This document shows, one piece after another, positions 3,606 through 20,391 of a stretch of DNA of 64,000 nt. The stretch spans positions 3,387 to 67,386 of the forward strand of contig CAYVLT010000001.1 of the NCBI GenBank assembly GCA_964452405.1. The letters are read 5' to 3'. The stretch is from an uncultured Ferruginibacter sp. (lineage in GTDB: Bacteria; Bacteroidota; Bacteroidia; Chitinophagales; Chitinophagaceae). The position numbers and the translations under genes are program-made. Within the stretch, counting starts at the first letter, position 1. Each line of letters opens with the position of its first letter. Below the pieces are notes generated by a model. That model was not told where the DNA came from and ran no database searches. It was given only the letters and a program-made list of their open reading frames with translations.

Positions 3606-3871
3606 TGTTTTTTGAGCCCGGCATTTGAAGGAGGATCAGCTTCGGTGGCGTCGCACACTTGTACCAGGGCTCATCCAGCAGCAGACACGGGTATCCTTGT
3701 TCCATCCAACACCCATGCCGGAGCAGGTTTTTACACATCCGTTTTCTACAAAGGCCTGGAGCAAGCTATCAACCCGGTGCTGGTATTTGCTGAATGATGT
3801 GAGCTGGCATTCACTTCTTTTTCGTTTATCGGTAACCGTGAGCAGGTTGAATATTTTTAATCTTTGCATAA

Positions 3872-3961
3872 AATCCTGAAGCCGTACCGGGCTTTCCCTG
3901 AACCTGTATGGATTCAACCTGTTACTGGTGAGCGGAAATTTGGATGAACATTCCGGGGATT
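3872..3961. ncRNA. Candidate small structured RNA with 6S-like motifs (strand unresolved)
   Basis: Ends are complementary (AATCC 3872-76 / GGATT 3957-61); internal TGAACC-tgtat-GGATTCA hairpin; near-consensus -7 box AATCTTTG at 3859-66; terminator downstream. The 6S resemblance is by eye only. Confidence 0.3.
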
Positions 3962-3995
3962 GTAACGATTGATCGCAACGCCACCACCAATGCAT

Positions 3996-4027
3996 AAAAA
4001 AAGCGGCAGTGTTTCGCTGCCGCTTTT
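3996..4027. terminator. Intrinsic terminator, probably bidirectional (main use: end of the minus-strand PUL transcript)
   Basis: AAAAGCGGCAG (3999-4009) / CTGCCGCTTTT (4017-27), with A7 on the left and T4 on the right; 22 nt past the GH16 stop. Confidence 0.88.
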
Positions 4028-4049
4028 AGAGAAAGTAGGTATAAAGTTG

Positions 4050-5252
4050 TTATTGAAACACGCGAACGTAATCTACAAACATCCGCTGTGGGAAGGTAGT
4101 GCTGGCATCCGGCGGACCAGGCCAGTCGCCACCCACGGCCACATTCATGATAAAAAAGAAAGGATGGTTAAAAGCATAGGTGCCGCTGCTGATGGAAGCG
4201 CTGGTACCGGTAAAGTAAACATGATCATCCACTAAAAACTGGATGCTGTTCTCCACCCAGATAACGCTGAACACATGAAATTGCTGGGAAAAGTCTTCTG
4301 AAGGCAGTTCATAGCTGTTGTTGATGGTGCCGTTAGACCCATCAGCCAGTGGCCAGTGCATGGAACCGGTGACTCTTTTAGGATAAGTCCCGATCAGTTC
4401 CATGATGTCGATCTCACCACATTTGGGCCAGGGATTGGTGCCAATATCAGACCCCAGCATCCACAAAGCGGGCCACATACCTTTCGCAACAGGTAGTTTA
4501 GCCCTGATGTCGATGCGGCCATAGGTGAATGTTTTTTTGTTGTACGTGGTGATGCGTGCTGAAGTGTAGTTGTTTCCTCCCAGGTTTTCTTTCCTTGCTT
4601 CAATTACAAGGTTGCCATTGGATTGAAACACATTCTGCGGCCGGCCGGTATAATTTTCAAGTTCATGATTTCCCCAGCCACTGCCACCGGTTTCAAAATT
4701 CCAGGTATTGGCATCAACAGTTGCACCGGAAAACTCATCGCTCCAAACAAGCGTATAGCCGGGATAGGTAGTAGGCGTGGTATAGCCGCTGTTGTCTGTA
4801 GGCAGGTAGGTGCCGTCTGACGTACCGATAATCCCTTTGAATGATGCGGTACCGATGGTGCAGTTTACCGGGTCGCTGAGCTGTACCGTATAAACAAGAT
4901 CAGGTTGCCGGAGGCTGTCTCCGGTGATGGCCACATCAAAAAATGCGGAAGTTTCATTCGCAGGGATTGTGATGGTGCCGGAAGCTGCCGTGAAATCCCG
5001 CGGCGAAAGCGCCGTGCCTGCAACAAGGGTATACTTAGCCGTTATCGCACTGGTACCCGCTTTGTTGAGACTGAGATAAAACCGCATCGTGGAGGCGCTG
5101 GTTGTTCTTGCCTTGGTTACATCAGTACCGGATAACACCGGCAAAGTTGAAGAGGGTGGAGGAGTTGTACCTCCCCCACCTTTCTTACAAGACGCCAAAA
5201 CGAACATTACCAGCAAACCAAAACTGGTAATTATTTTAAAGCCTTTTTTCAT
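4050..5252 (-). CDS. GH16 endo-beta-1,3-glucanase (laminarinase-type) lipoprotein with N-terminal Calx-beta-like domain
   Basis: Lipobox VLASC; WSDEF, GWGNHELE, WPALWMLG and catalytic EIDIME; Calx-beta-like segment (YTLVAGTA..DFTAASGTITI). Confidence 0.9.
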   Translation of the reverse strand: MKKGFKIITSFGLLVMFVLASCKKGGGGTTPPPSSTLPVLSGTDVTKARTTSASTMRFYLSLNKAGTSAITAKYTLVAGTALSPRDFTAASGTITIPANETSAFFDVAITGDSLRQPDLVYTVQLSDPVNCTIGTASFKGIIGTSDGTYLPTDNSGYTTPTTYPGYTLVWSDEFSGATVDANTWNFETGGSGWGNHELENYTGRPQNVFQSNGNLVIEARKENLGGNNYTSARITTYNKKTFTYGRIDIRAKLPVAKGMWPALWMLGSDIGTNPWPKCGEIDIMELIGTYPKRVTGSMHWPLADGSNGTINNSYELPSEDFSQQFHVFSVIWVENSIQFLVDDHVYFTGTSASISSGTYAFNHPFFFIMNVAVGGDWPGPPDASTTFPQRMFVDYVRVFQ

Positions 5253-5261
5253 AAGTGTTTT

Positions 5262-6167
5262 TTAATAGGAACGCAATGTAAACGCCCACCAGCCATAGCC
5301 GAGGTCAACGCCAACTACTAAAATGTCGTACCCTGCCGGATCATGTGTCATTGCTAAGATATCATACGTAATAGAGGTGGCAGGTGCGCTGGTGTTCTCA
5401 CCACCGTTCCTCACCTTCTGTAAACCGATATGAGCTCCCAGGCCAACTACTGTCAATTGTCCCAATCCACGTACGCCGGCATTGTCGGTAAAAGTATAGG
5501 TGAAAGTACCTGAACCCCAGGGAGCCTGCGTTGCAGTGTAATTGCTGCTTGGCTGGCAGGTGCCGGTATTGTCGCCTAAATAGCCATCACCAAAAAAGTC
5601 GCCTTTGTTATCGTAAATAAAAGTTTGATCGAGATAAGTGAAAGTATATTCATCATTGAATTCACAGGATCTTCCGGTAACATCACCGGCACCACTTGAC
5701 CACCAGTTGCCGGCATCAGGAGATGCATCGCCCACTTTATAGGCGCCGGCTTCCGGGTTGAGTTTCCAGGTTTTTGACGTGCAACCTGCAATAAAACCTT
5801 TGTGATTTCTTTCGCAGGCAGTTATATCATCCTGTGCAATTACTATAGGTTTGGTTACTGAGTCAAGACCACCATTGTTAACCACGTAAAGAGTAACATT
5901 GTAAGTACCCATGTAATCGAAGCTGGTGGTGGCGGAATCTCCTTTCAGCAAGGTGCTTGCAGTACCTACTCTCCAGTAAGGGATACTGGCAGTGCTTGAT
6001 TTGTTGACCAATGTAATTACGTTGGGGTTGGTGCCGGGTACTGCGATAAAATCGGGTGTAGCCAGCGGACCCAGTGATCCTCCTTTTTCCTTTTTGCAGG
6101 AAGACAATCCCAGGCACAGGATCGAGGCGATCGCGGCCAGGCTAAAAAGTTTGAAATTATTTTTCAT
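5262..6167 (-). CDS. PKD-domain surface lipoprotein (probable surface glycan-binding protein of the PUL)
   Basis: Lipobox LSSC-KKEK; PKD-like GTYNVTLYV; position directly after susD. Confidence 0.75.
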   Translation of the reverse strand: MKNNFKLFSLAAIASILCLGLSSCKKEKGGSLGPLATPDFIAVPGTNPNVITLVNKSSTASIPYWRVGTASTLLKGDSATTSFDYMGTYNVTLYVVNNGGLDSVTKPIVIAQDDITACERNHKGFIAGCTSKTWKLNPEAGAYKVGDASPDAGNWWSSGAGDVTGRSCEFNDEYTFTYLDQTFIYDNKGDFFGDGYLGDNTGTCQPSSNYTATQAPWGSGTFTYTFTDNAGVRGLGQLTVVGLGAHIGLQKVRNGGENTSAPATSITYDILAMTHDPAGYDILVVGVDLGYGWWAFTLRSY

Positions 6168-6185
6168 AATGATTTGTTTGGTTGA

Positions 6186-7703
6186 TTAATTATATCCTGG
6201 ATTTTGAACAAGCTTGGTGTTAGTCATGTCGCTGATAGGAATCGGCAGAATTTCATTTTTGCCAGCCACAAAACCATTGGCAGATAAAGCTTCTGCAGCT
6301 TTGCCTGTGCGCACGAGGTCGAAGAATCGATGCCCTTCAGTGGCCAGTTCCAACCTTCTTTCGTTATAAATAACATCGAGTGTTACCGGGATGGAAGGCA
6401 GGCCTACACGGGCTCTTACAGCGTCAACCAAAGCCTGCGCCCTTGCTGTATTTGCGCCGCTGTGAACAAGTGCTTCTGCTTCCATCAGGTAAGTATCCGC
6501 CAGCCGGATCTCGATATAGTCCAGTTGATAATTCAATTCAGTGGTACCAAGCAGCGGGGTTTTATAGGCAATCTTGGGACCGTATTTTTCAACGAAGTAA
6601 CCGGTATTATCGGCACCCGCTTCGTAACTGCTTCCGGTTGCCTGTGTAAGGCTATCCATGTTGATGCAGGTATAGTTATACCTCGGATCGTTTTTGATCG
6701 CATTTACAAGCGACATAGTAAGCGGACAGAATCCCCAGCCAGACGCATAAATGGGTCCATTGTATCCTCTTGCACCGATCATCTGCACCATTACATTTCC
6801 TTCAAATGCACCCCATGCACCCCAGTCTTGCTGTGCTTTGTTGGTATGCACGATCTCAAAAATTGATTCTGCATTGAATTTGTTGGAAGGAACAAAGATA
6901 TCCGGGAAATTAGGCAGCAACTGGTAACCAAAGCTGCTTACACCGCCTGGTGTACCATTCACATCGGCCAACTGAGCCGCTGCTTCAGTCCATTTTTCTT
7001 CGTATAGGTACACTTTGCCGAGCAATGCTTTGGCAGCACCTTTGGTAACTCTTCCTCCTTCAGTTACCGGAACATTCAGTGGCAAGTTAGGTTCTGCAAT
7101 GGCATCGGTTAAATCGCTTTCAATTTGCGCATACACGGCCTCGGGAGTTGCCTGGGTTATGTTGTAAATATCCGAAGTAGGGATAGCTGCAGTGATCAAC
7201 GGAACGTTTTTAAACAAACGTACCAGGTCAAAATAGTAGTAAGCCCTTAAAAATTTAACCTCTGCAGTGTACCTGCCTTTAGTGGCTTCAGTAAGATCCG
7301 GAACTCCGTCCATCTTTGTCAATAGCAGGTTAGCCCTGTAAATGCCGGTATAGTTCCGGCCCCAAAGATCACCTTGTGGTCCTTGTGCGAGGTTAACGGT
7401 GAATTTATCCCAGGAAGTCCAGTTAACCTGGTCTGGCCCGGGGGCTGCACCACCAGCTGCACAATCATCTGAGGCAGTATTCAACAAACCGAGTTTGCTT
7501 GAATAGCTTGATCCTGTTTCTGAACCCAGGGGATCGTAAACGGCTACCAGCCCTTTGAAAACTTCAGCAGCATTTTTATAAAACTGCGTCTCCAGGGTGG
7601 TTTGATTTCCCGTCGGGTTCACGTCGAGAAAACTTTTTTTACATGAATTTAAAACCAGCAATGCTGTGACAGACAAAGCCAGGTATTTTATATTTTTTTT
7701 CAT
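6186..7703 (-). CDS. susD: SusD/RagB family glycan-binding lipoprotein
   Basis: Lipobox LNSC; EVKFLRAYYYFDLVRLF, IRLADTYLMEAEA, ERRLELATEGHRFFDLVR, QNPGY end. Confidence 0.95.
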   Translation of the reverse strand: MKKNIKYLALSVTALLVLNSCKKSFLDVNPTGNQTTLETQFYKNAAEVFKGLVAVYDPLGSETGSSYSSKLGLLNTASDDCAAGGAAPGPDQVNWTSWDKFTVNLAQGPQGDLWGRNYTGIYRANLLLTKMDGVPDLTEATKGRYTAEVKFLRAYYYFDLVRLFKNVPLITAAIPTSDIYNITQATPEAVYAQIESDLTDAIAEPNLPLNVPVTEGGRVTKGAAKALLGKVYLYEEKWTEAAAQLADVNGTPGGVSSFGYQLLPNFPDIFVPSNKFNAESIFEIVHTNKAQQDWGAWGAFEGNVMVQMIGARGYNGPIYASGWGFCPLTMSLVNAIKNDPRYNYTCINMDSLTQATGSSYEAGADNTGYFVEKYGPKIAYKTPLLGTTELNYQLDYIEIRLADTYLMEAEALVHSGANTARAQALVDAVRARVGLPSIPVTLDVIYNERRLELATEGHRFFDLVRTGKAAEALSANGFVAGKNEILPIPISDMTNTKLVQNPGYN

Positions 7704-7721
7704 ATCGTGAATGTTAGTGTA

Positions 7722-10700
7722 TTAAAAAGTTAGGTTAAGGCCGGCAGTAAAAGAACGTGCCTGGGGATAGAAACCACGATCAATACCGTAGCTGCCGCCA
7801 CCGATCTCTGGGTCATAACCCGTGTATTTGGTGATGGTAAGCAGGTTGTTACCACTCACGAAGATGCGTGCCCTTTGAAAACGTACTTTATTCATGATTG
7901 AAGTTGGTAAAGTGTATCCCAGTTGCAACACTTTGATCCTGAAATAATCTCCATCTTCCAGGTAAAAAGAAGAAGGATTGCTGAAGTTTCCGTTTGGATC
8001 ATCAGTTGACAAACGTGGGAAGCTGTTGGAAGTTCCGGGACCAGTCCAGCGGTTCAGGGCCTGCGTGGTGTAATTTGCAGTTGGAATATCCAGCCTGCGT
8101 AATCCATTGTAGATCTGGTTTCCTCCGGCACCCTGTCCAAAGATCACGAGGTCGAATCCATGGTAGGCAATATTGGCAGTAAAACCATAGGACCAGTCAG
8201 GCGTAGGATCGCCGATGAATTTACGGTCAGCGGTAGTGATAGCACCATCGCCGTCAATATCAGCCCAGCGGAAATCACCGGGTTGCGCATTGGGTTGAAT
8301 TAAACCGCCATTTTTGTTGCGGTAATTATTGATCTCTTCCTGAGTCTGGAAAATGCCCATTGTTTCATACCCGTAAAATGAACCGATGGCATGACCCACA
8401 GCATTGCGTGCTAACTCCAACTGGCTTGATTGCAGTTTAGGACCAACGATATAGGTTTTATCAACGCCTAAATAAGTAATGGTGTTTTTGAGGTGCGATA
8501 CATTCGCTTTCAATTCAATCTTCACGTCACTGATGGTTTTACGATATCCCAATTCGAGTTCAAAACCTGAGTTGGTCATATCAGCAACGTTGCCGATTGG
8601 TCCGCCCACACCCACATACAGGGGCACATCCACGCCCAGCAACATGCCGGTTGTTTTTTTCTTGTACCAGTCAAAAGTTACGGTGAAGTCGCGGTACACT
8701 GTTGCGTCGAAGCCGATATCGGTCTGGCTGGTCTGTTCCCATTTAAGATCAGGGTTGGCAATGGCTGCAGGGCTGTTACCAAAAGTATAGGTATCGCCAA
8801 ATGTGTAGTTTCTGCCACCATCCACACGGCTCACGTAGTTAAAGTCACCGATATTATCGTTACCGGTAACACCATAAGAACCGCGGATTTTCAGGAAGTT
8901 GATCACTTTGTTCTGTGGCCAGAAATCTTCTTTGGAAGCTACCCAGCCGATTGAACCGGATGGGAAGAAGCCATATTTATTATTGCTTCCGAAACGGCTT
9001 GAACCATCCCGCCTTACGATGCCTTGCACCAGGTATTTTTCCTGGTAGTCATACGTTAAACGTGCATAGATAGAACTTACTTTATGAGCATAAGCTTGCC
9101 CTGCCCAGCCTTTAGAAGAATCAGGCAATACATAATGGGTGGTAGAAGCTTCTGCGAAAGTATTCACAGGGAAATTATAATAACTGGTTCCCTGGCTCCT
9201 GCTGGAGTAATTGTCAACATAAGCACCGGTACCTACAAGGGCTGTTACGTGATGTGAACCAAAGCTGGTGGTATAAGAGGCTGTGTTTTCCCAGGTGTAG
9301 TTCAACGCCCGGTTGCTTTCGGTATAAAAAGAGTTGTTACCTGTATTTTTATTAACCGTGTTATAATAATAATAAGGATTAAAACTTTCACTACCCCAGA
9401 AAGCATATTTAGCACCCAGGCTGGTGCGAACTTTCAAACCTTTAATGGGTTCTACTTCGGCAAAAGTATTTCCCACCAGGTTATCAGACCATCCAAAATT
9501 GCCAAGATGGGTTTTGATATAGGCCAGTGGGTTCGACATTTCCTGCAATACAATATTGGAGATGCCATAAGGATTTCCATTTTCATCTCTTACAATACCC
9601 AGTCCCTGGTTGTTGTTGCCATTCGGCAAATAAGGATCTGCATTGGCTTCAGTTGGATCGGTGATCACCGCTTTGGTGATTGGATCGAGGTTTACCACCG
9701 AGCTTAAAATACCACCATATTCCGTATTAAGCCCACCGATTCCGATTCCTTTTATGTGCGAATAACCAAGATTGCTTCCAACAGTTAGCCAGTTGTTGAT
9801 CTTATGAGTACCGTTGAAGCGGAAATTAAGGCGTTTGTACTTGGAAATATCAGTGGCAATGATACCTTCCTGTTCAAAATATCCAAATGAGGAATAAAAA
9901 GTGGAACGGTCGCTACCCCCGCTGATGCTCAGTTCATGATCCTGGATTTTAGCGCTGTTGTTAAATATTAGTGACTGCCAATCGGTTCCTTTACCCAGGC
10001 TGGCCGGGTTGTTGAACACAAGGCCACCACCGCCTGCAAGCGACGCTTCGTTGCGAAGCGTGGCGTATTCTGTTGCATTCAAAAGATTAAGTTTATGAGC
10101 CGCTGCCTGTGTGCCATAATAGCCATTATAGCTCATAACGCTTTTTCCAGCCTTACCTTTTTTAGTGGTTACCAGTATCACTCCACTGGCAGAACGGGCT
10201 CCGTAGATTGCGGCAGAAGCTGCATCTTTTAAAACTTCGATGGATTCAATATCGCTGGGATTCAGGTAATCGATACCCCCGATATCTACCGGAACGCCAT
10301 CCACAACGTACAGCGGGTCGCTGTTACCAATGGAAGTGGTACCCCTGATGCGAAGGGTGGAGGCGGAGCCGGGCTGACCGGAACTGGCCGCAATGGTGAG
10401 GCCGGATGCACGTCCCTGCAGGAATTGCTCAACACGCCCGATGGGCTGGTTGTCGATATCCCCTGCTTTTACTTTTGAAATGGCACCGGTAACAACACTT
10501 TTCTTTTGAGTGCCATAACCCACCACCACTACTTCTTCCATGCTGGAAGTGGTTTTATTGAGTTTGGCTACTACGGCACCGTCCGTAACGCTGATTTCCT
10601 GGGTCGCATACCCAAGACTGGAAATCACTATTGTTTTTGTTGTGGCAGGAACAGTAAGACTGAACTGCCCGTTTACATCAGTAACTGTTCCCGTTTTGGA

Positions 10701-10835
10701 TCCTTTAACTACTACGGAAGCATTGGGAATTCCAATCCCCTGTTCATCTGTTACCTTACCGGTAACTGTTTTTGTTTGCGCCATTGCAATCGCCATGGAA
10801 AAGAAGGCAAAGCATAGCATGAGAATCTTCTTCAT
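7722..10835 (-). CDS. susC: SusC/RagA TonB-dependent transporter
   Basis: Start moved to MKKILM (10835), which gives a signal peptide; EVVVVGYG, IEVLKDAASAAIYGARSASGVILVTTKKG plug motif, YPQARSFTAGLNLTF end. Confidence 0.95.
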   Translation of the reverse strand: MKKILMLCFAFFSMAIAMAQTKTVTGKVTDEQGIGIPNASVVVKGSKTGTVTDVNGQFSLTVPATTKTIVISSLGYATQEISVTDGAVVAKLNKTTSSMEEVVVVGYGTQKKSVVTGAISKVKAGDIDNQPIGRVEQFLQGRASGLTIAASSGQPGSASTLRIRGTTSIGNSDPLYVVDGVPVDIGGIDYLNPSDIESIEVLKDAASAAIYGARSASGVILVTTKKGKAGKSVMSYNGYYGTQAAAHKLNLLNATEYATLRNEASLAGGGGLVFNNPASLGKGTDWQSLIFNNSAKIQDHELSISGGSDRSTFYSSFGYFEQEGIIATDISKYKRLNFRFNGTHKINNWLTVGSNLGYSHIKGIGIGGLNTEYGGILSSVVNLDPITKAVITDPTEANADPYLPNGNNNQGLGIVRDENGNPYGISNIVLQEMSNPLAYIKTHLGNFGWSDNLVGNTFAEVEPIKGLKVRTSLGAKYAFWGSESFNPYYYYNTVNKNTGNNSFYTESNRALNYTWENTASYTTSFGSHHVTALVGTGAYVDNYSSRSQGTSYYNFPVNTFAEASTTHYVLPDSSKGWAGQAYAHKVSSIYARLTYDYQEKYLVQGIVRRDGSSRFGSNNKYGFFPSGSIGWVASKEDFWPQNKVINFLKIRGSYGVTGNDNIGDFNYVSRVDGGRNYTFGDTYTFGNSPAAIANPDLKWEQTSQTDIGFDATVYRDFTVTFDWYKKKTTGMLLGVDVPLYVGVGGPIGNVADMTNSGFELELGYRKTISDVKIELKANVSHLKNTITYLGVDKTYIVGPKLQSSQLELARNAVGHAIGSFYGYETMGIFQTQEEINNYRNKNGGLIQPNAQPGDFRWADIDGDGAITTADRKFIGDPTPDWSYGFTANIAYHGFDLVIFGQGAGGNQIYNGLRRLDIPTANYTTQALNRWTGPGTSNSFPRLSTDDPNGNFSNPSSFYLEDGDYFRIKVLQLGYTLPTSIMNKVRFQRARIFVSGNNLLTITKYTGYDPEIGGGSYGIDRGFYPQARSFTAGLNLTF

Positions 10836-11089
10836 AAGCTTGATCGTTTTGTTTGCGAGTTTTGGTTGAAAAATTTGGTTTGTTAAACGGCGCCCTGAGG
10901 CAGGATCGTTGGTACAGATTTGCAAAGGCTTGCTAAAAAGATTCTTTTCCAGATGAACCTACCATGAGAAAAATGGAGAAGTACAAAATTGTAAAGGAGT
11001 CATTTTCATTGCAAGCACTGTTTTAAACCTGGGTGTAACTATCCCGGAACAGATCGATAATCATTGATGTATTACCGAAGAAGGCGGAG

Positions 11090-11097
11090 CAAATTTA
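11090..11097 (-). promoter_or_regulatory. Bacteroidetes primary-sigma -7 box for susC (TAAATTTG)
   Basis: Exact TAnnTTTG match on the minus strand; implies a leader of about 250 nt. Confidence 0.55.
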
Positions 11098-11126
11098 GAA
11101 TGCAAACGTTTGTAATTGTCCCAAAA

Positions 11127-11203
11127 TACTACATCATGGCTACTACATCAACGCTTAAATATTTGATTTTCAATAAAGTAAAATTACATCAAGCCTACAT
11201 CAA
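11127..11203. promoter_or_regulatory. Four direct repeats of TACATCA, candidate operator of the divergent PUL regulator
   Basis: TACTACATCA at 11127 and 11141; TTACATCAA at 11184; CTACATCAA at 11195; inverted copy TTGATGTA at 11064-71. Confidence 0.55.
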
Positions 11204-11243: not shown

Positions 11244-14123
11244 ATGAAATTTTTGGCTTTTTGTCTCTCCCTGTTTCTCACCATTGGTCCGGCATTTGGG
11301 CAAAACACGATCGGGATCCCACAAATAATAAATTATAACAATGCGAATTATAACGGGGGAACACAGAACTGGGATATCCAGCAAGACGAAAACGGGATCA
11401 TGTATTTTGCCAATAATGAAGGCCTTGTAACCTTCGATGGCAATCACTGGAAGATTTACCCCATTCCCAATAAAACCCTTATCCGGTCATTGTATGTAGC
11501 TTCAACAGATAAAATTTACGTGGGGGCGCAGGATGAATTTGGTTTTTTTTCGCCCGATAAAAACGGCAGCCTTCAATATCATTCTTTAAAAAGCCTGATT
11601 CCTAAACCCCAGAACCAGTTTGCCGATGTTTGGAACGTGGAATCGTTTGGCGAATCGGTGTTTTTTCGCACCACCGACCGGATATTTGAATTAAAGAACA
11701 ATGCGATCCAGGTGTTTCCTACCACCACGGAATGGCGTTTTTTAAAGCAGGTGGGATCAAGATTGATTGCACAGGATAAGTCGCAGGGGTTACTACAGTA
11801 CAAAAGTGGCCGCTGGTATCCCCTGAATACACAAAACGCATTTGAAGGAATTTTGGTAACCGGCGTTATACAAACCGGCCTGGATAGTTTTTTGATCAGC
11901 ACCCTCAAAAACGGGCTTTTCGTTTCCTGCAACGGCACAGTGTCTCCCAAAAAAACGGCGATCGATGAAGAATTAAAAATGTACCAGGTATATGCATTGG
12001 CGATGATCAACGAAAATGAATTTGTGCTGGGCACCACTTCAGATGGGTGCATTATCATGAATTTTAAAGGAGAAGTGGTTCAGAAAATCACGCATGAAGA
12101 GGGGCTGCAGAATAATAATGTACTTTCACTTTATCTCGACAATCACCAGAACCTCTGGGCCGGGTTGAATAACGGCATCAGTTTTACTGCTTACAATGCA
12201 GCAATTAAATATATACGTCCCGAAAAAACCAGCGACCTCGCCACCTATTCCACCAAGATCTTCAATCAAAAATTATATGTAGCCACTTCAGACGGAACCT
12301 ATTCCGTGCCGCTGACCGGGCAGAACAGCGATTTCAGTTTTTCAAAAGGTAATTTCAGCCAGATAAAAAACAGCGGTGGGCAGGTTTGGCGGCTGGATGA
12401 AGTGAATAACCAATTGCTCATGGGTTACAATGACGGCGCTTTTGTGATCCGGGATGAAGTGGCGCAGCCGATCATGCAGGGCACAGGCGCCTGGTTGTTT
12501 ATGCCTTTGTCACCGGTCTATCCTTCACGGCAGGTATTGGCCGGCACGTATATCGGGCTGGAAATGCTGAGTTTTAATGGTACCAATTTCATTGATGAAG
12601 GAAAAGTGGGCAATATCAGTGAATCGTTCAGGTTTTTGACCATCGATAATAATAATGATATCTGGACCTCTCATCCTTACCGGGGTGTGTATCGTTTTCA
12701 AAGGGCAGAGGATGGAAAAACCTTTACCTGGCAATTGTTTGGCGAAAAGGATGGATTACCTTCTTCCCTGGGCAATTATGTGTACAAAGTAAAAAACCAT
12801 ACCGTGTTCGCAACAGAAAAAGGAGTGTACGAATTTGATGCGGCGTCAAAGAGATTCTACCGGTCGCCTTTTCTGCGTCCTGTGTTTGATACCATGCAGG
12901 TGAGATACCTGACTGAAGATGCCGATGGAAATATCTGGTTTTGCAGCGAGAAAAAAATGGGCGTGGTGAGTTTCGACGAAAAGCAGCCTGCGAATTTTTC
13001 AATCACTTATTTCCCGGAACTGAATGGTCACATCCTCTCGGGATTTGAAAATGTATATCCTTATAACCGGGAAAATATTTTTATTGGCTCTGAAAAAGCC
13101 ATCATCCACCTCAATTATAAAAAGTACACCAACAGCCGTTTTCCATTGTCGGTGTTGCTTGGCCAGGTAAGGGCTTTTGATAATGCCAATACCATGGCCT
13201 TTGGCGGATACTATGTGCAGCAGGACAAAGCCGCCAATACACAACTGCCATCCAGTTACAATTCATTTCATTTTGAATACAGTTCTCCGGCATTTGGATT
13301 GCAAAACAATATCGAGTACAGCTACCAGTTAGTGGGATACGACCAGGGTTGGTCGGCATGGTCGGCAAAAACTGAAAAAGACTATACCAACCTGTCGCAT
13401 GGCAAGTATATCTTCCGGGTGAAGGCACGTGATAACCTGGGAAATGAGTCCACTATTACCTCCTGCACATTTATAGTAAAGGCAGCCTGGTATAATACCG
13501 TTACTGCTTACATCTTTTATGGCTTCCTGCTGTTGTTGCTGGTATACCTGCTGTACCGGTGGGAAAAAAGGAAATTATACCGCCAGAAGATTATGTATGA
13601 AGAGGAGGAGAAAAGGCTGCGGTACATTCACCAGTTAGAGCTTGAAAAAAATGAAAAGGAGATCATTAAACTGCAAAATGAAAAGCTGGCCAATGAAGTG
13701 CTGTTTAAAAATAAAGAGCTGGCCGATGCCACCATGCACCTGGTTGAACGAAGTGATGCACTCAACAAAGTAAGAGATGAATTACAAAAACTGTACAGGA
13801 ATACATCGAACAACCATGATGTAAAAAAAGTGATTCAGCTGCTGAACGACGTTGAAAAAAACAATGAAAACTGGGACCAGTTTGCTTCTCACTTTGACGA
13901 GGTAAACAACGACTTTTTAAAAAAGCTGAAGGCAAAGTATCCACAGCTTTCCAATACCGACCTGAAGGTATGTGCTTACCTGCAGCTGAATTTGTCCACT
14001 AAAGAAATTGCGCAGTTGCTGAATATTTCTGTAAGAGGTGCGGAGATCAGCAGGTACCGGCTCAGGAAAAAGCTGCAGCTGTCCACTGATCAAACCCTGA
14101 ATGATTTTTTAAACGGGATCTGA
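11244..14123 (+). CDS. Membrane-spanning PUL regulator: periplasmic beta-propeller + Y_Y_Y domain, TM helix, coiled coil, LuxR-type HTH
   Basis: Signal peptide; propeller repeats (EGLQNNNVLSLYLD); YSYQLVGYDQGW..DYTNLSHGKYIFRVKA; C-terminal LSTKEIAQLLNISVRGAEISRYRLRKKL; no kinase or receiver motifs seen. Confidence 0.88.
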   Translation: MKFLAFCLSLFLTIGPAFGQNTIGIPQIINYNNANYNGGTQNWDIQQDENGIMYFANNEGLVTFDGNHWKIYPIPNKTLIRSLYVASTDKIYVGAQDEFGFFSPDKNGSLQYHSLKSLIPKPQNQFADVWNVESFGESVFFRTTDRIFELKNNAIQVFPTTTEWRFLKQVGSRLIAQDKSQGLLQYKSGRWYPLNTQNAFEGILVTGVIQTGLDSFLISTLKNGLFVSCNGTVSPKKTAIDEELKMYQVYALAMINENEFVLGTTSDGCIIMNFKGEVVQKITHEEGLQNNNVLSLYLDNHQNLWAGLNNGISFTAYNAAIKYIRPEKTSDLATYSTKIFNQKLYVATSDGTYSVPLTGQNSDFSFSKGNFSQIKNSGGQVWRLDEVNNQLLMGYNDGAFVIRDEVAQPIMQGTGAWLFMPLSPVYPSRQVLAGTYIGLEMLSFNGTNFIDEGKVGNISESFRFLTIDNNNDIWTSHPYRGVYRFQRAEDGKTFTWQLFGEKDGLPSSLGNYVYKVKNHTVFATEKGVYEFDAASKRFYRSPFLRPVFDTMQVRYLTEDADGNIWFCSEKKMGVVSFDEKQPANFSITYFPELNGHILSGFENVYPYNRENIFIGSEKAIIHLNYKKYTNSRFPLSVLLGQVRAFDNANTMAFGGYYVQQDKAANTQLPSSYNSFHFEYSSPAFGLQNNIEYSYQLVGYDQGWSAWSAKTEKDYTNLSHGKYIFRVKARDNLGNESTITSCTFIVKAAWYNTVTAYIFYGFLLLLLVYLLYRWEKRKLYRQKIMYEEEEKRLRYIHQLELEKNEKEIIKLQNEKLANEVLFKNKELADATMHLVERSDALNKVRDELQKLYRNTSNNHDVKKVIQLLNDVEKNNENWDQFASHFDEVNNDFLKKLKAKYPQLSNTDLKVCAYLQLNLSTKEIAQLLNISVRGAEISRYRLRKKLQLSTDQTLNDFLNGI

Positions 14124-14178
14124 GGGTTACCGGAAAGATCAAAAAAATAATTATGTAAGGCGCCGGTCTTTTCTGTGA

Positions 14179-15438
14179 GTGGCAATGAGTAACTTGCCGC
14201 TCATGTTTTTCCGAAGGAAAATAGTTTGGTTGATGATGGCCCTCACGGGCGCAGTGCTTTTGATAGAAAGTTGCCTCAACCAATCCGGCGATCTGCAGGC
14301 TGATGTGCGTGGACAGGCCTATGCCGGAGCGGCATCCTGTGCCGGTTGTCATCAACATGAGTATGAAGCCAGCCTCCGGTCAGCCCATCACAACAGTTCC
14401 CGTCCTGCTTCTCGTACAACCGTAGCCGGTAGCTTCAGTGCGCCCGGGAACGTGTTGCTTTATTCCGATTCGGTGAAAGTGGTGATGGAAGAAAAAAATG
14501 ACCGGCTTTGGCAGTCCTCTTATACCGGCGGGCATCTGTCCGAATCACACCCTTTTGATATCGTGATCGGGTCGGGCAGAAAAGCACAAACTTACCTTTA
14601 CCACGAGGACGATGAAATTCACCAGTTGCCGATCTCTTATTTTGTTCCGGCCGCCAGTTGGGCCATCAGCCCGGGTTTTCCCTCTACCTACGTGTCTTTT
14701 AAACGGAATATTCCCAGCGCCTGTTTCGGCTGCCATGCCTCAGCAGCAAATGTATCTACCGTGCAAACAGGAAGCCTGTCGCTTTCTGAGAAATATATTC
14801 CCGGCCAGCAGCTACTTGGTATCGACTGCGAAAGATGTCATGGACCTGCCATGCAACATGTGCTGTATCAAACAGAACACCCGCAGGAGAAAGCAGCCAG
14901 GTACATCACTTCAATCAGCAGCCTGAGCAGGGCCCAAAAAATGGATATGTGTGGTTTGTGTCATTCGGGTATCAGGAAAAGCCAGCAGTCGGTATTTGAC
15001 TTTAAACCCGGCGACGCCCTTGATAATTTCTATTATCCTGATTTCATGGATAAGCCTGCTGACAAAATGGATGTTCATGGTACGCAGCTGCAATTTTTAA
15101 AGGCCAGTAAATGCTATCGGCAGAGCCAGCAGCTAACCTGCAATACCTGCCACAATCCACACGAAGATCAACGAACGGATATGGCCGGGTATTCTCAAAA
15201 ATGTATGACCTGCCACAACGAGGCAAATCATAATTTTTGCCCTGAGGCGGACACCCTGGGTGCTGCTATCGTTAAAAACTGTATCGATTGCCATATGCCA
15301 ACGCAGGCTTCCAGGGTGATTACGCTCCTCACCAATGGTAAGGAGAGTCCCCGTCCGGATTACATTCGCACCCACGTGATCGCAGTGTATGGCGACGCAA
15401 CAAAAAAAATGTTACAATCTTTCAGGCAGCAGCAGTAA
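14179..15438 (+). CDS. Multiheme (7x CXXCH) cytochrome c, probable lipoprotein
   Basis: CAGCH, CFGCH, CERCH, CGLCH, CNTCH, CMTCH, CIDCH; hydrophobic N-terminus ending LIESC. Exact start uncertain. Confidence 0.88.
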   Translation: MAMSNLPLMFFRRKIVWLMMALTGAVLLIESCLNQSGDLQADVRGQAYAGAASCAGCHQHEYEASLRSAHHNSSRPASRTTVAGSFSAPGNVLLYSDSVKVVMEEKNDRLWQSSYTGGHLSESHPFDIVIGSGRKAQTYLYHEDDEIHQLPISYFVPAASWAISPGFPSTYVSFKRNIPSACFGCHASAANVSTVQTGSLSLSEKYIPGQQLLGIDCERCHGPAMQHVLYQTEHPQEKAARYITSISSLSRAQKMDMCGLCHSGIRKSQQSVFDFKPGDALDNFYYPDFMDKPADKMDVHGTQLQFLKASKCYRQSQQLTCNTCHNPHEDQRTDMAGYSQKCMTCHNEANHNFCPEADTLGAAIVKNCIDCHMPTQASRVITLLTNGKESPRPDYIRTHVIAVYGDATKKMLQSFRQQQ

Positions 15439-15470
15439 GTTTATCAGTGTTGTTGCAATTAAAAACAGGA

Positions 15471-16268
15471 ATGATGAAATCTATCTACACAACAACTGGA
15501 CTTTCATTACTGGCATTTTTTATTATGTCGGCCAGTAACCATAACAATGCAATGGTGAGCCGGTGCCCCACAAATGATTCACTACATCTTGTGTGGTCTG
15601 ATGAATTCAGCAAAGACGGTCTGCCAGACAGTTCCAGGTGGAGTTTTGAAACCGGTGCAGGCGGATGGGGAAACAATGAAGAGGAGTTTTATACCGATCG
15701 TGCCGAAAATGCATTTGTCAGGAACGGCGTGATCACGATCACCGCCCGGAAAGAAGCGTATAAGGGTAGTAGTTATACTTCAGCAAGGCTGGTGTCGAAA
15801 GGCAAATTTTCATTTACGTATGGAAAGGTTGAAATCAGGGCAAAACTGCCAACAGGGGTGGGTACCTGGCCAGCACTATGGATGCTGGGGAGCAATGTTT
15901 CAGAAGTTGGCTGGCCACAATGTGGTGAAATTGATATCATGGAACATTTGGGCAGGGATCTCAACAATATTTATGGCACACTGCATTACCCGGGCCGTTC
16001 CGGCGGAAACGCTGATGGAGGCTCGAGGAAGATCACCAATGCTACCGACGCATTTCATATTTACACCCTTGACTGGTCGGCTTCTGCAGTAACTGTTTCC
16101 GTAGATGGTGCCATGGTACATTCAGTTGCCAACAGCGCCTCCCTGCCATTTAATCATGATTTCTTTTTAATCATGAACATGGCTATGGGTGGCGGTTTTG
16201 GGGGGCCTGTTGATCCGGCCTTCAGGCAGGCTTCTATGGAAGTGGATTACATCAGGGTGTATCAGTAA
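15471..16268 (+). CDS. Single-domain GH16 beta-1,3-glucanase with signal peptide
   Basis: WSDEF, GWGNNEEE, WPALWMLG, EIDIME, MEVDYIRVYQ; start moved to MMKS (15471). Confidence 0.9.
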   Translation: MMKSIYTTTGLSLLAFFIMSASNHNNAMVSRCPTNDSLHLVWSDEFSKDGLPDSSRWSFETGAGGWGNNEEEFYTDRAENAFVRNGVITITARKEAYKGSSYTSARLVSKGKFSFTYGKVEIRAKLPTGVGTWPALWMLGSNVSEVGWPQCGEIDIMEHLGRDLNNIYGTLHYPGRSGGNADGGSRKITNATDAFHIYTLDWSASAVTVSVDGAMVHSVANSASLPFNHDFFLIMNMAMGGGFGGPVDPAFRQASMEVDYIRVYQ

Positions 16269-16384
16269 TTTTCTTACTGGGATTTTAGCTATTTTCAAGC
16301 ATCCATGTGTGTATCAGGAGTACTGGTATTAAACGGCCGCAATGTTTGCGGTCATGTTATTACAAGTCCATTACCTTTGCGCCC

Positions 16385-18280
16385 ATGCATTACGGCTCCA
16401 TCGAAAATATCAGTAAGTCATTCGGGGTAAGAACACTTTTCAGTAACATCAGCTTTCACATAGAGGAAGGCGATAAGATCGCATTGGTGGCACGAAACGG
16501 ATCAGGTAAATCAACGCTGCTGAAGATCATCGCAGGTCTTGATACGCCTGATACCGGAACGATCTGGATACGAAAGGAAGTAAAAGTGATCATGCTGCTG
16601 CAGGAAACAGCTTTTGATGAGTCTAAAAGTATCTGGGATAACATCCTGCGGCTCGACAATCCTGTGGTGAAAGTGGTGAAGGAATATGAAATGTTTTTAG
16701 AAGCAGGAACAGAAGACGTGGATCACCTCACCGGGCTGATGGGAAGACTGGATGAGCACAATGCATGGAATTTCGAAAATGAATTACAGCAGATACTGGG
16801 TAAGTTAAACCTGCATCACTTAAATGAACCAGTAAAAAACCTGAGCGGCGGCCAGCGCAAACGGGTGGCACTTGCCCAGGCGTTGATTGAAGCGCAGATT
16901 CATGAAGGCAAGTGTTTATTAATACTGGATGAGCCCACCAACCACCTGGACGTGGGTATGATTGAATGGCTGGAAGATTTTTTAGGAGCCCAAAAGATCA
17001 CCCTGTTATTGGTTACCCACGATCGTTATTTCCTGGACGCGGTATGTAACGAGATCATTGAAATAGACGAAGGAAAAGTATATGAATACCGCGGCGATTA
17101 TGATTATTTTCTCGAACAAAAAAGCCTGCGGCAGGAAGTGCAGGCCAGTGAACTGCAGAAAGACAAAAATATTTACCGTAAAGAACTGGAATGGATGCGA
17201 AAGCAACCCAAGGCCAGGACCACCAAATCAAAGTCGAGGCAGGATGCCTTTGCCCAGGTGGAAGAAAGGGTGAGCCAGAAAAAAGAAGAGCTGGAAGTAA
17301 GCCTGCAGGTAAAAATGACCCGCCTCGGTGGCAAGGTACTGGAGATGAAAAAGGTGAACAAAGCTTATGGCGACAAGGTGCTGATAAAGGGCTTTGATTA
17401 TACTTTTAAAAGAGGAGAACGCATTGGCATTGTGGGTAAGAACGGGGCCGGCAAATCCACTTTCTTAAAGATCGCCCTGCAGCAGGAACCGCCAGACAGT
17501 GGCAAGATCAATCATGGCGAAACAGTCGTATTTGGCAATTTCAACCAGGAAGGATTACAATACAAAGAAGACAAAAGAGCCATTGAATATGTGAAGGAGT
17601 TTGCAGAGTTTTTCCCCCTGGCAGATGGGTCCAAAATCAGCGCCAGTCAGTTCATGGAAAAATTCGGGTTCAGTGCCGAACAACAATACACGCCATTGAG
17701 TAAACTGAGTGGCGGTGAAAAAAGAAGACTGCACCTGTTGAGTGTGTTGTTTGTAAATCCTAATTTTTTGATACTGGATGAACCTACCAACGACCTGGAT
17801 CTTCAGACCCTAAGAACACTGGAAGAATTTTTACTCGACTATCCAGGTTGTATCCTGATCGTGAGTCACGACCGTTATTTCATGGACCGGCTCGTTGATC
17901 ACCTGTTTGCTTTTGAAGGAGATGGTATGATCCGTGATTTCCCCGGTAACTATACCCAATACAGGGAGCAATTGAAAAACAATACCCTCACCGGATCATT
18001 TATCCGGAAAAATGACGAGGAGGAAATAAAGGAAACAAAAGTTACCCCACCTAAAACCAACAGCAATCAAAAACTTTCTTTTAAAGAGAAATTTGAACTG
18101 GAAACTCTTGAAAAAGAAATGCCGGCATTGCAACTTGAAAAGGAAAATCTGGAAGCGGCTATGACCAATGGAACTACCGGTTATGATGAGTTGCAAAAAG
18201 CGGCGGCCCGTATTGGGGAGATCATTGAATTGCTGGATGCAAAAGAAATGCGCTGGCTCGAGTTAAGCGAAAAAACCTAA
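16385..18280 (+). CDS. ABC-F family ATP-binding protein (Uup-like)
   Basis: Two ABC domains (ARNGSGKST / GKNGAGKST, LSGGQRKR / LSGGEKRR, LDEPTN), no TM segments, C-terminal coiled coil; start moved to MHYGS, just after TACCTTTG at 16372-79. Confidence 0.92.
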   Translation: MHYGSIENISKSFGVRTLFSNISFHIEEGDKIALVARNGSGKSTLLKIIAGLDTPDTGTIWIRKEVKVIMLLQETAFDESKSIWDNILRLDNPVVKVVKEYEMFLEAGTEDVDHLTGLMGRLDEHNAWNFENELQQILGKLNLHHLNEPVKNLSGGQRKRVALAQALIEAQIHEGKCLLILDEPTNHLDVGMIEWLEDFLGAQKITLLLVTHDRYFLDAVCNEIIEIDEGKVYEYRGDYDYFLEQKSLRQEVQASELQKDKNIYRKELEWMRKQPKARTTKSKSRQDAFAQVEERVSQKKEELEVSLQVKMTRLGGKVLEMKKVNKAYGDKVLIKGFDYTFKRGERIGIVGKNGAGKSTFLKIALQQEPPDSGKINHGETVVFGNFNQEGLQYKEDKRAIEYVKEFAEFFPLADGSKISASQFMEKFGFSAEQQYTPLSKLSGGEKRRLHLLSVLFVNPNFLILDEPTNDLDLQTLRTLEEFLLDYPGCILIVSHDRYFMDRLVDHLFAFEGDGMIRDFPGNYTQYREQLKNNTLTGSFIRKNDEEEIKETKVTPPKTNSNQKLSFKEKFELETLEKEMPALQLEKENLEAAMTNGTTGYDELQKAAARIGEIIELLDAKEMRWLELSEKT

Positions 18281-19437
18281 TCAGTTACAAGCGGCTGAAC
18301 TCCGTTGCCGGTTTCAACAATATAGGCCTCAGCAGTGATCTTGTATTGCTGCTGATAAGCTGCCAGTATATCCTGTATAAATTGGGAGGTGGTTTCTTTT
18401 TTCACCAGGTTTACGGTGCATCCACCAAATCCGCCCCCCATCATTCTCGCCCCGATCACACCATCATAATTAAATGTGTAAGCCGCTAAAAAATCAAGTT
18501 CATCGCAACTTACCCGGTATAGTGTACTCAGTCCTTCATGAGTGGCATTCATTAATTTTCCGAAGGCGATCAATTCATTGTTGGCGAGCAGCTGCACTGC
18601 CTGCCGGGTGCGGGCAATTTCCCCGGTTACATACAAGCAGCAATTATACACGGTTTGGCTCATGAGATTTTTACAGGCTGCCAACTTCTCCTCAATATCT
18701 TCATCCCTGAAAGAGCTTACTCCGGCATGTTGCTTTAAAATTGACAAGCCCTCCTCGCTCCATTGCCTGCGCAGGTTATATTCACCCGACACCAGCTCAT
18801 GATGCACTTTTGAATTGATGAGCACAATATAATATTCCCCTAACTGCAGCGGGTAATATTCATGTTCAACATTTTTGCAATCGAGAAAAAGCACATGATC
18901 TTTTTTGCCATTTAGATTGGCATACTGGTCCATGATGCCGCATTTCATGTTGGGATAATTGTGCTCAGCCCGCTGGCACAGCAAGGCAAGTTCTTTACGG
19001 GATAGTGCCACATTGAAAATATCATTCAGTGCAAAGGCCAGGCCGCCTTCTACCGCAGCAGATGAACTTAAACCGGAACCGATGGGAATATCGCCACTGA
19101 AAACACAGTCGAACCCACTGATATTTTTTTTAAGCAGTAAAAATTCGTTTACCACGCTCAGCACATAGTTCTTCCAACTCTCCGATTCTTTAATATCCTG
19201 CAAGGAAAGGCTGATCTTCTCCTTAAAATCAACAGCAAAAAAATTCACCTCGTTGCTGTTATTGGCGCCCACCGCATAATACACTCCTTTGTTAATGGCT
19301 GCCGGCAATACATAACCGTCATTATAGTCTACGTGTTCGCCGATTAAATTGATGCGGCCGGGAGAAAAATATAAACGGGGTGTATGTTTGTATTCAGTGT
19401 TGAATATTTCTACTACTGTTTTGGCTATCGGATTCAT
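18277..19437 (-). CDS. galK: Galactokinase
   Basis: PGRINLIGEHVDYNDG, IPIGSGLSSSAA, CGIMDQ, GARMMGGGFGG. Confidence 0.95.
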   Translation of the reverse strand: MNPIAKTVVEIFNTEYKHTPRLYFSPGRINLIGEHVDYNDGYVLPAAINKGVYYAVGANNSNEVNFFAVDFKEKISLSLQDIKESESWKNYVLSVVNEFLLLKKNISGFDCVFSGDIPIGSGLSSSAAVEGGLAFALNDIFNVALSRKELALLCQRAEHNYPNMKCGIMDQYANLNGKKDHVLFLDCKNVEHEYYPLQLGEYYIVLINSKVHHELVSGEYNLRRQWSEEGLSILKQHAGVSSFRDEDIEEKLAACKNLMSQTVYNCCLYVTGEIARTRQAVQLLANNELIAFGKLMNATHEGLSTLYRVSCDELDFLAAYTFNYDGVIGARMMGGGFGGCTVNLVKKETTSQFIQDILAAYQQQYKITAEAYIVETGNGVQPLVTD

Positions 19438-19443
19438 AAGGTA

Positions 19444-20391
19444 TCAGGTTGTTGAGATGAGGAAGGAGGTGACAAAATCTGCGCTTGCACCGGGTTGTAA
19501 AATGGTCAATTGAATGCCATTGTTAAAAGCGTCTGGTGGAGCACTTAAATTCTCAATGGCAATACTATTGCGATGAGGAGGCGTGTACAGTTGCAGGTAT
19601 GGATAGCCTTTGCCGGGCCTTACCTGCAGTTGCAACCCGTTTTCTGTGTCAGTCAAAATACAGGGGGCTCCACCAGCGGCGGCATCCAGTAAAAAGCAAT
19701 CATCAAAAAATTGATCCCCTAATATTTTTCCGTCATAATAATCTTTATAAGGCTTCATTTCGCCGGTAGGAATGATCTCCTTATCGCAAACCACCTGCAG
19801 GTCGCTTTTTAACTGCAGGTGCAATTGGTTAATGGAACTGCCCAGGTTAAAATATGGGTGCCAGCCATCATGGATCGGGATGTCTGCCGAATGCCTGTTA
19901 GTCACCTTCGTATGTATCGAAAGTTCATTATGTTCTTTCAGGGTATAAATAACCTCGCAGTCATAACTAAAAGGATAACCGTTTTCTTCCCCCCGGTATT
20001 TGTACAGCAACTGCACATGGGCAGTCCGTTCGCCCGTCGCGGTGGCGGTTACCTGGAAATGTTTGTCGTACAACAGGCCATGAATGGCGTTTTTGCCTAA
20101 TATAAATTTATCAGGCCGGTAGGTTGCGCCATTAAAGGAATAAGTGGAGTCTTTAATCCGGCAGGCAAAGGGGGAAAGCTTGCAGCTTTTAAAGCCTTTG
20201 GATGTGAGGTTTTGCTTAAAGTCAGCAAAATCAGTATAACAATCAATGATATTTTGCCGGTGGCCCTTGCGTAAGATGCTGAAAGATTCAAGAATGCCAC
20301 CATATTGAGGCCATATCGTTGCGCTGGTTTCGGTGGATAGGTCTGTCAGGGTAACCGTCCCGCTTTTTTCATCGGTGTTAACTGTGAACAT
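19444..20391 (-). CDS. galM: Aldose 1-epimerase (mutarotase) family protein
   Basis: NAIHGLL, GWHPYF, FDDCF, YLQLYTP, IAIENLS; co-oriented with galK. Confidence 0.8.
   Translation of the reverse strand: MFTVNTDEKSGTVTLTDLSTETSATIWPQYGGILESFSILRKGHRQNIIDCYTDFADFKQNLTSKGFKSCKLSPFACRIKDSTYSFNGATYRPDKFILGKNAIHGLLYDKHFQVTATATGERTAHVQLLYKYRGEENGYPFSYDCEVIYTLKEHNELSIHTKVTNRHSADIPIHDGWHPYFNLGSSINQLHLQLKSDLQVVCDKEIIPTGEMKPYKDYYDGKILGDQFFDDCFLLDAAAGGAPCILTDTENGLQLQVRPGKGYPYLQLYTPPHRNSIAIENLSAPPDAFNNGIQLTILQPGASADFVTSFLISTT

Follow-up and report, generated by a model that had tools for sequence, protein, structure and literature searches.

Polysaccharide utilization loci (PULs) are the paradigm of glycan foraging in Bacteroidota and are seen as purely hydrolytic or lytic machines for binding and import. 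To our knowledge, the PULs described so far have no multiheme cytochrome component, and a search of the full-text literature for multiheme or c-type cytochromes in connection with PULs, SusD, glycoside hydrolase (GH) families GH16 or GH30, laminarin, or ASPIC/UnbV found no such description. What, then, is the function of a predicted heptaheme c-type cytochrome lipoprotein whose gene lies between the regulator and a GH16 gene of a β-glucan PUL? The gene is part of a stretch of 64,000 nucleotides (nt) from an uncultured Ferruginibacter sp. (GenBank assembly GCA_964452405.1, contig CAYVLT010000001.1, positions 3,387 to 67,386), which was analyzed as a whole and is called the window below. A preliminary description of this DNA had considered redox-coupled glycan oxidation, electron transfer, or redox sensing as possible roles, with chance insertion as the alternative. 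Our preferred reading, to which we assign a probability of roughly 0.55, is that the protein is a lipid-anchored, probably periplasm-facing, OcwA-like seven-heme cytochrome that acts as a periplasmic electron-transfer or oxidoreductase module coexpressed with the PUL. The novelty lies in a multiheme cytochrome that forms part of a PUL, and members of the family have repeatedly become incorporated into SusC/SusD loci of soil and sludge Bacteroidota (aerobic Chitinophagia and Sphingobacteriia), with β-glucan loci as the commonest case. A cytochrome that recurs in PULs would mean that the turnover of polysaccharides in soil, sludge, and freshwater also has a redox side, with electron disposal, oxidative or reductive preprocessing, and redox gating as possible roles.

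A heptaheme cytochrome gene in a β-glucan utilization locus

The stop-free translation of the cytochrome open reading frame (ORF; positions 14179 to 15438, + strand) comprises 419 amino acids (aa) and contains all of the seven CXXCH motifs and the two extra cysteines (in SKCY and NFCP) that had been reported for it. The motifs are CAGCH (residues 54 to 58, positions 14338 to 14352), CFGCH (residues 182 to 186, 14722 to 14736), CERCH (residues 217 to 221, 14827 to 14841), CGLCH (residues 258 to 262, 14950 to 14964), CNTCH (residues 321 to 325, 15139 to 15153), CMTCH (residues 342 to 346, 15202 to 15216), and CIDCH (residues 368 to 372, 15280 to 15294), all on the + strand. In an alignment of 134 sequences, the seven motifs are invariant, as are Met373 directly after the seventh motif, Trp161, Tyr404, five histidines outside the motifs (His70, His227, His300, His328, and His399), and the first extra cysteine, Cys312 in SKCY (15112 to 15114, +), a candidate heme ligand or redox thiol; Cys32 (95%), Lys135 (92%), Met103 (90%), and the second extra cysteine, Cys354 in NFCP (80%), are partly conserved. 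Since there are five invariant extra histidines for seven hemes, at least two of the hemes probably have a methionine, cysteine, or lysine ligand or an open site, and by their conservation the candidates for non-histidine ligands are the invariant Cys312 and Met373 and the less strictly kept Met103 and Lys135.

The GTG codon at 14179 lies 55 nt after the end of the regulator ORF at 14123, as had been stated. The alignment with relatives makes ATG 14203 (MFFRRKIVW...) the likelier start, which widens this gap to 79 nt. MFFRRK, a hydrophobic stretch, and Cys32 (14272 to 14274) together form a predicted lipoprotein export signal. On the other side, the distance of 32 nt between the cytochrome stop codon and the GH16 gene holds with the likely GH16 start at ATG 15471, and the regulator, cytochrome, and GH16 genes were confirmed to be on the same (+) strand.

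Heme motifs, protein family, and locus annotation together bear out the earlier view that a genuine multiheme cytochrome lipoprotein gene is embedded in a β-glucan PUL. Of the elements by which SusC/SusD PULs are recognized, adjacent SusC and SusD genes, two GH16 genes, and a dedicated regulator are present in the window. The + strand run of regulator, cytochrome, and GH16 faces a − strand operon of SusC, SusD, lipoprotein, and GH16. This operon encodes a SusC-like TonB-dependent transporter (7722 to 10925, −; TIGR04056 with 884 bits against a cut-off of 368; Plug and CarbopepD_reg_2 domains); a SusD-like lipoprotein (6186 to 7703, −), which falls into one cluster with SusD genes from 37 loci and whose ortholog in locus L087 has SusD_RagB/SusD-like_3; a 301-aa lipoprotein (5262 to 6167, −; CKKEKGG) without a Pfam match, whose gene is kept in loci L087, L088, and L089 and which is a candidate surface glycan-binding protein because of its position after SusD; and, as the last gene, a 400-aa surface-type GH16 lipoprotein (4050 to 5252, −; Glyco_hydro_16, E = 4.8e-25; CKKGGGG after the lipid cysteine). 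The regulator (11244 to 14123, +; 959 aa; Y_Y_Y, 1.1e-13; Reg_prop, 3.2e-9; GerE, 2.6e-4) is a transmembrane one-component protein that consists of a signal peptide, Reg_prop propellers, Y_Y_Y, one transmembrane helix, a cytoplasmic coiled coil, and a LuxR/GerE helix-turn-helix. The GH16 ORF downstream of the cytochrome gene (15447 to 16268, +; 273 aa; Glyco_hydro_16, 3.8e-25) encodes a signal peptide without a lipobox, and its product is predicted to be the periplasmic or secreted β-glucanase of the locus; the NCBIfam β-glucanase models score below their cut-offs for it. These two GH16 genes are the only ones in the genome. With SusC-SusD, a candidate glycan-binding lipoprotein, surface and periplasmic GH16 enzymes, and a regulator, the locus resembles canonical laminarin/β-glucan PULs (for example, those with GH16, GH30, and GH3), and the loci of its relatives add GH30, GH5 with CBM6, and GH3 to this set.

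Recurrence of the cytochrome in SusC/SusD loci

In three relatives (58 to 71% protein identity), a (GH16/GH30)-lipoprotein-SusD-SusC operon stands opposite a regulator→cytochrome pair, as in the window. The gene 3′ of the cytochrome gene is a GH20 gene (on either strand) in two of them, in contrast to the GH16 gene of the window; in the third (P0003), the contig ends just past the cytochrome gene. Because the gene after the cytochrome varies, the regulator-cytochrome pair is the conserved unit in the lineage of the window. At 51% identity (the P0016 locus), the cytochrome gene is located between GH16 and GH30 genes inside the susC operon, and stand-alone copies occur among relatives at 48 to 51% identity. 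No full-length homolog of the window's regulator was found beside the cytochrome gene in 80 species-representative loci, which restricts the pairing to the closest lineage.

For the wider survey, these 80 loci were fetched (one genome per species), ORFs were called, and neighbors were clustered and annotated; context counts were taken over the 79 loci from other genomes. The cytochrome gene directly adjoins a GH16, GH30, GH5, or GH3 gene in 26 loci, adjoins a PUL-type gene of any kind in 40, and forms a tight same-strand run with PUL genes in 34, and PUL-type genes lie within 8 kb of it in 47. An independent tally of Pfam families among the 146 immediate neighbors agrees with these counts (GH5, with or without CBM6, 17; GH30, 12; TonB receptor/SusC, 12; FG-GAP/ASPIC, 11; LamG, 6; PF10091, 3; GH16, 2; and GH127, 2). 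The preliminary description had asked for co-occurrence with GH16 and SusCD genes to be surveyed: PUL-type genes are close by in those 47 of 79 loci, but the association does not extend to the whole family, about 40% of whose members lie outside PULs, and the PUL role of the cytochrome is therefore accessory and not obligate.

Three types of loci make up this recurrence, namely, β-1,3/1,6-glucan loci, FG-GAP/ASPIC-PF10091 loci, and hydroxyproline-linked SusCD loci. Of the β-glucan type, same-strand orders with the cytochrome gene (CYT) are SusC-SusD-GH16-GH30-(GH3)-GH30-CYT-GH5-7TMR-DISM in Mucilaginibacter, SusC-SusD-GH30-GH5/CBM6-CYT in Pedobacter, and SusC-SusD-...-GH16/GH30-CYT in several Chitinophagaceae. 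Cultured Pedobacter, Mucilaginibacter, and Chitinophagaceae strains have this operon form, so that the idea of a PUL cytochrome is directly testable. The second type reads SusC-SusD-LamG-CYT-FG-GAP/ASPIC-UnbV-PF10091, with GH30 or PAP2; PF10091 is a family that we take to comprise the GH144 β-1,2-glucanases. In the genome P0009, a second cytochrome paralog (L086:17083-21212) lies ∼6 kb from the first and adjoins a 1,227-aa FG-GAP/UnbV_ASPIC protein, so that β-glucan-type and FG-GAP-type loci stand almost side by side there. In the third type, the cytochrome gene is located between a set of hydroxyproline catabolic genes and a SusCD pair. Three such loci (L010, L012, and L013, ∼250 to 8000), in which one cytochrome clade is flanked by SusCD and a complete-looking catabolic set (a DHDPS-family protein, an aldehyde dehydrogenase, a proline-racemase-family epimerase, a DAO-family oxidase, DUF885, and an amino acid permease), point to hydroxyproline-rich (glyco)peptides as the target of such a SusCD locus.

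The two main clades of a maximum-likelihood tree of 80 members follow the type of locus, one holding the FG-GAP and SusCD-only contexts and the other the β-glucan GH contexts together with the non-PUL copies. Context is clustered on the tree yet changes at least 21 times, which indicates that the association is both inherited and remade.

The window's own genome, a metagenome-assembled genome (MAG) from activated sludge (4.9 Mb in 510 contigs), encodes two cytochrome paralogs, and both lie inside SusCD loci. The SusC model has 22 matches in this genome, 11 of them above the family cut-off and several being contig-end fragments, which corresponds to ∼11 to 16 genes. By a rough estimate, SusC genes and the 5 kb on either side of them account for ∼4% of the genome, and the chance of finding both paralogs there is therefore ∼0.1 to 0.2%. 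The locus of the second paralog (L085, contig C7:6500-26400) has the order extracytoplasmic function (ECF) sigma/anti-sigma-SusC-SusD-LamG-CYT-FG-GAP/ASPIC-PF10091-EEP-PF10091; its anti-sigma factor is of the FecR kind, its SusC has an STN domain, its FG-GAP/ASPIC-UnbV protein is 1,121 aa long, the EEP protein is an EEP-family phosphatase, and further PF10091 copies lie along C7.

A large and uncharacterized cytochrome family

A word-indexed search returned 843 relatives, whose most informative names are "multiheme c-type cytochrome" or "hypothetical"; their genera are Chitinophaga, Niastella, Paraflavitalea, Terrimonas, Ginsengibacter, Flavisolibacter, and Segetibacter. When 1.84 billion cluster representatives were scanned in full with HMMER, 1,832 clusters (50% identity) matched at E ≤ 1e-30 and 5,560 at E ≤ 1e-10. 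The family is thus large, and it is entirely uncharacterized: no curated Pfam or NCBIfam family describes it, the multiheme matches being short and weak. Above the Pfam cut-offs, only short stretches match Cytochrome_C7 (28.6 versus 24.8 bits) and Paired_CXXCH_1 (24.6 versus 20.6 bits), and the Cytochrome_C554 match (PF13435) that had been suggested falls under its cut-off (20.1 versus 20.8 bits). Membership in the DmsE, GSU2203, NrfH, and HmcA families was rejected, as NCBIfam scores were far under the cut-offs.

Relatives of 570 to 845 aa consist of the cytochrome module fused to TPR repeats at either end. In a sample of 401 genomes of the phylum, 41 have a match; the ∼400-aa form is found in ∼19, within the window's class, and the other matches are partial and weaker (E ∼1e-50 to 1e-70) and lie in open frames of 630 to 790 aa, consistent with the TPR-fused long form. 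The window's copy has the same cytochrome module as these cytochrome-TPR and FG-GAP/ASPIC modules, and one Bacteroidota clade, to which the second paralog of the window's genome belongs, likewise adjoins FG-GAP/ASPIC proteins in SusCD loci, but the window's copy has neither TPR repeats nor an FG-GAP neighbor, its partners being GH16 and the Y_Y_Y/LuxR regulator. Two MAGs titled Citrobacter freundii and Bordetella parapertussis (L003 and L059) carry a Bacteroidota-type cytochrome; on the tree, the L003 copy is placed with Chitinophaga and the L059 copy with those of uncultured Chitinophagales/Bacteroidota MAGs, and both are probably mislabeled or contaminated bins.

The predicted fold resembles that of OcwA

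AlphaFold gave an unusable model from a 22-sequence alignment (predicted local distance difference test [pLDDT], 48) and a usable one from the 134-sequence alignment (pLDDT, 92; predicted template modeling score [pTM], 0.87). The model runs from an anchor helix through the region of heme 1, a β-sheet domain (approximately residues 92 to 214) that carries heme motif 2, and a helical, heme-dense part to a β-hairpin (residues 375 to 397) and one terminal helix (residues 405 to 418), a fold that can be read as a c554-type heme module, a β-sheet domain, and further hemes. In a Foldseek search against the PDB, the sole significant match was OcwA (6i5b; E = 1e-8; probability, 1.00; TM scores, 0.52/0.46; ∼470 columns), which was also the top match of a profile search (E = 1.4e-5). 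Galectins and sliding clamps came up for the β domain with Foldseek probabilities below 0.35 and were disregarded.

OcwA of Thermincola potens is a nine-heme surface terminal reductase whose hemes 1 to 4 superpose on cytochrome c554 and hemes 5 to 9 on NrfA, and which has a β-sheet domain in common with MccA (PMC6703420). It shows mixed heme coordination with two five-coordinate hemes, and its substrates include nitrite, hydroxylamine, iron oxides, and electron shuttles (PMC6703420). The window's protein shares with OcwA the succession of an N-terminal heme motif, a β-sheet domain, and clustered CXXCH motifs. It also has fewer conserved distal histidines than hemes, which suggests a mixed coordination like that of OcwA; its second CXXCH aligns with the heme-2 motif of OcwA and is therefore a candidate non-bis-His site (PMC6703420). 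It differs in having seven hemes instead of nine (at 15 to 16% identity) and in ending in a single helix, the C-terminal three-helix bundle of OcwA not being present in the AlphaFold model. It also differs in being a lipoprotein, probably periplasmic, of a Gram-negative aerobe, whereas OcwA is a Gram-positive cell wall protein, and in being encoded in a PUL, whereas OcwA belongs to an extracellular electron transfer cluster. The Foldseek and profile matches make the cytochrome a distant seven-heme member of the NrfA/c554/MccA structural group, and we regard it, within the structural group of OcwA, as a new branch with seven hemes; it has neither the nine hemes nor the five or eight hemes with a special catalytic motif by which the NrfA/c554/MccA group is recognized, and no CXXCK was found in it.

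The cytochrome is not of the Mtr/DmsE type, nor of the c3/c7 type. The likeness to MtrA/DmsE and to the c554, c7, and c3 Pfam families is confined to short stretches (60 to 90 residues) around paired CXXCH motifs, and, unlike MtrA/DmsE, the window's cytochrome has no MtrB-like porin partner; the DmsE/MtrA decaheme model (TIGR03508) gave 48.6 bits against a cut-off of 192.2.

Location, heme attachment, and expression

The lipid-bearing Cys32 is followed by LNQSGD, and the preliminary description had contrasted this tail with the K/D/E-rich tails of the window's surface lipoproteins (CKKS.. in SusD, CKKE.. in the 301-aa lipoprotein, and CKKG.. in the 400-aa GH16). The contrast proved to be correct and to extend to the whole family: a hydrophobic residue follows the lipid cysteine in 109 of 127 cytochromes but in none of the 37 SusD proteins of the same loci, all 37 of which have a lysine at positions +1 to +3, as do most of the GH16, GH30, and PF10091 lipoproteins. 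This suggests a sorting route for the cytochrome other than that of the surface lipoproteins and, most simply, a position facing the periplasm.

Cytochrome c maturation is represented in the genome by a CcmF/NrfE-type gene (one gene type seen, in a MAG of 510 contigs), namely, an ORF of at least 824 aa that runs off contig C327 (L083:1189-3660). A second PF01578 ORF (249 aa) lies on contig C88. We had also considered the long PF01578 ORF as a fused CcsBA (System II), and this was rejected because NCBIfam assigns it to the CcmF/NrfE type.

A single transcript from the regulator gene through the cytochrome gene to the gene of the periplasmic GH16 is most likely. No exact TAnnTTTG −7 box was found between the three genes, which is compatible with one transcript; a scan for sigma-70 promoters, whose consensus is inapplicable to Bacteroidota, stayed at background level. 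A biofilm metatranscriptome contains sparse contigs with at least 99% identity to the regulator and to positions 14230 to 14372 of the cytochrome gene, so that the gene is transcribed somewhere, at a low level; this was the only RNA run in which the region was found, and its coverage is shallow.

Proposed function and alternative explanations

In the preferred reading, that of a coexpressed module, electrons would pass along a chain of bis-His hemes between the respiratory pool (quinol, alternative complex III [ACIII], or a soluble cytochrome c) and one or two hemes without a conserved distal histidine, with the c554-like heme 2 as a candidate and Cys312, Met373, and Lys135 as candidate axial ligands at these special hemes. 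These hemes would reduce or oxidize a small redox-active substrate in the periplasm during glycan feeding, and the cytochrome would serve as a PUL-coexpressed oxidoreductase or electron outlet, apart from the cleavage of glycosidic bonds. The gene, its motifs, their conservation, the structural relative, and the genomic association are observed; we infer the location, cotranscription, direction of electron flow, and substrate. Locus-specific paralogs and the TPR fusions in relatives suggest specific protein partners, and since stand-alone copies exist and no redox neighbor is conserved, the chemistry can be argued to be independent of the PUL enzymes.

Several observations speak against this reading. 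A PUL-type neighbor is absent from 31 of the 80 tree members, including Flavobacterium, several Chitinophaga, and Mucilaginibacter copies, and the protein is therefore able to function in the absence of PUL genes. The loci of related species are not independent, so that the raw locus counts overstate the number of independent associations, and even in the taxonomic family to which the window belongs, the cytochrome occurs patchily (8 of the 23 genomes listed). No conserved redox partner (dehydrogenase, lytic polysaccharide monooxygenase [LPMO], or oxidase) was found beside the cytochrome in the β-glucan loci, and when the non-PUL and SusCD-only contexts were searched for a periplasmic partner of the 3-keto-glycoside or dehydrogenase kind, the hydroxyproline set and a multicopper oxidase were found instead. 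Finally, a terminator-like hairpin found by consensus scan (14174 to 14205, +; 12 pairs followed by TTTTTCC) overlaps the likely start codon at 14203 and could be an attenuator of read-through from regulator to cytochrome, or could have arisen by chance.

Among the non-PUL copies, two Mucilaginibacter cytochromes (L017:9259-11571, − strand, and L040 at the same position) adjoin a 771-aa multicopper oxidase, a CobW-type metallochaperone, and Lgt.

In a different explanation, the protein is a general-purpose periplasmic cytochrome (a detoxifier of nitrite, hydroxylamine, nitric oxide [NO], or peroxide, or a respiratory side branch) that is merely coexpressed with PULs and has no glycan- or locus-specific role. 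The family members outside PULs, the stand-alone copies at 48 to 51% identity, the lack of a conserved redox partner in the loci, and the promiscuity of OcwA, its sole structural relative, toward small nitrogen oxides are what one would expect of such a protein. A generic detoxifier, however, would not need one copy per PUL, and locus-specific paralogs are what is seen, with the genome's two copies in different SusCD loci among ∼11 to 16 SusC genes and with the two main tree clades following locus type; we therefore consider this explanation rather unlikely, if still one to be taken seriously. Doubtful to a greater degree is a sensing role: as an accessory of PUL regulation, the cytochrome would signal the redox state of the periplasm, O2, NO, or a ligand to the Reg_prop/Y_Y_Y/LuxR regulator (in other lineages, to 7TMR-DISM or anti-sigma sensors) and so gate PUL expression. 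Such a role would account for the conserved regulator→cytochrome order in the window's lineage (gaps of 55 to 110 nt, with a variable gene after the cytochrome), for the 7TMR-DISM sensor two genes downstream in Mucilaginibacter, and for the fusion of long relatives to TPR protein-interaction domains, but seven hemes are many for a sensor, stand-alone copies have no adjacent regulator, and in Pedobacter, the P0016 locus, and the FG-GAP-type loci, the cytochrome stands among enzymes, away from the regulator.

That the cytochrome gene merely hitchhikes between the regulator and GH16 genes, without a functional link, would fit a family that is patchy and mobile between contexts. The chance insertion considered in the preliminary description is nevertheless contradicted by the layout kept down to 58% protein identity, by the recurrence of the same families of carbohydrate-active enzymes in different gene orders in three bacterial families, and by the location of both of the genome's paralogs in SusCD loci, and we regard it as very improbable.

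A wider interpretation than the coexpressed module of the preferred reading is possible, and we put it forward tentatively: OcwA-like heptaheme cytochromes might be a hitherto unrecognized accessory class of TonB-dependent SusCD-type loci, whose locus-specific paralogs perform a redox step on or alongside imported cell wall-derived glycans or glycopeptides. They might, for example, remove or reduce redox-active cross-links or modifications, or supply electrons to or drain them from a periplasmic partner, and, with the TPR-fused and CRTAC1/FG-GAP-associated relatives of soil phyla, such a class would not be limited to Bacteroidota.

Further features of the region

An ABC-F ATPase gene (EttA/Uup-like; 16307 to 18280, +) follows the GH16 gene; a separate −7 box of the Bacteroidota type, TACCTTTG, belongs to it at 16372, and it is unrelated to the locus. 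After it come a galactokinase gene and an aldose 1-epimerase gene (18277 to 20391, −), and the PUL ends here. The sequence TACATCA occurs four times in the divergent susC/regulator gap (11064 to 11203) and is not found 5′ of the cytochrome gene.

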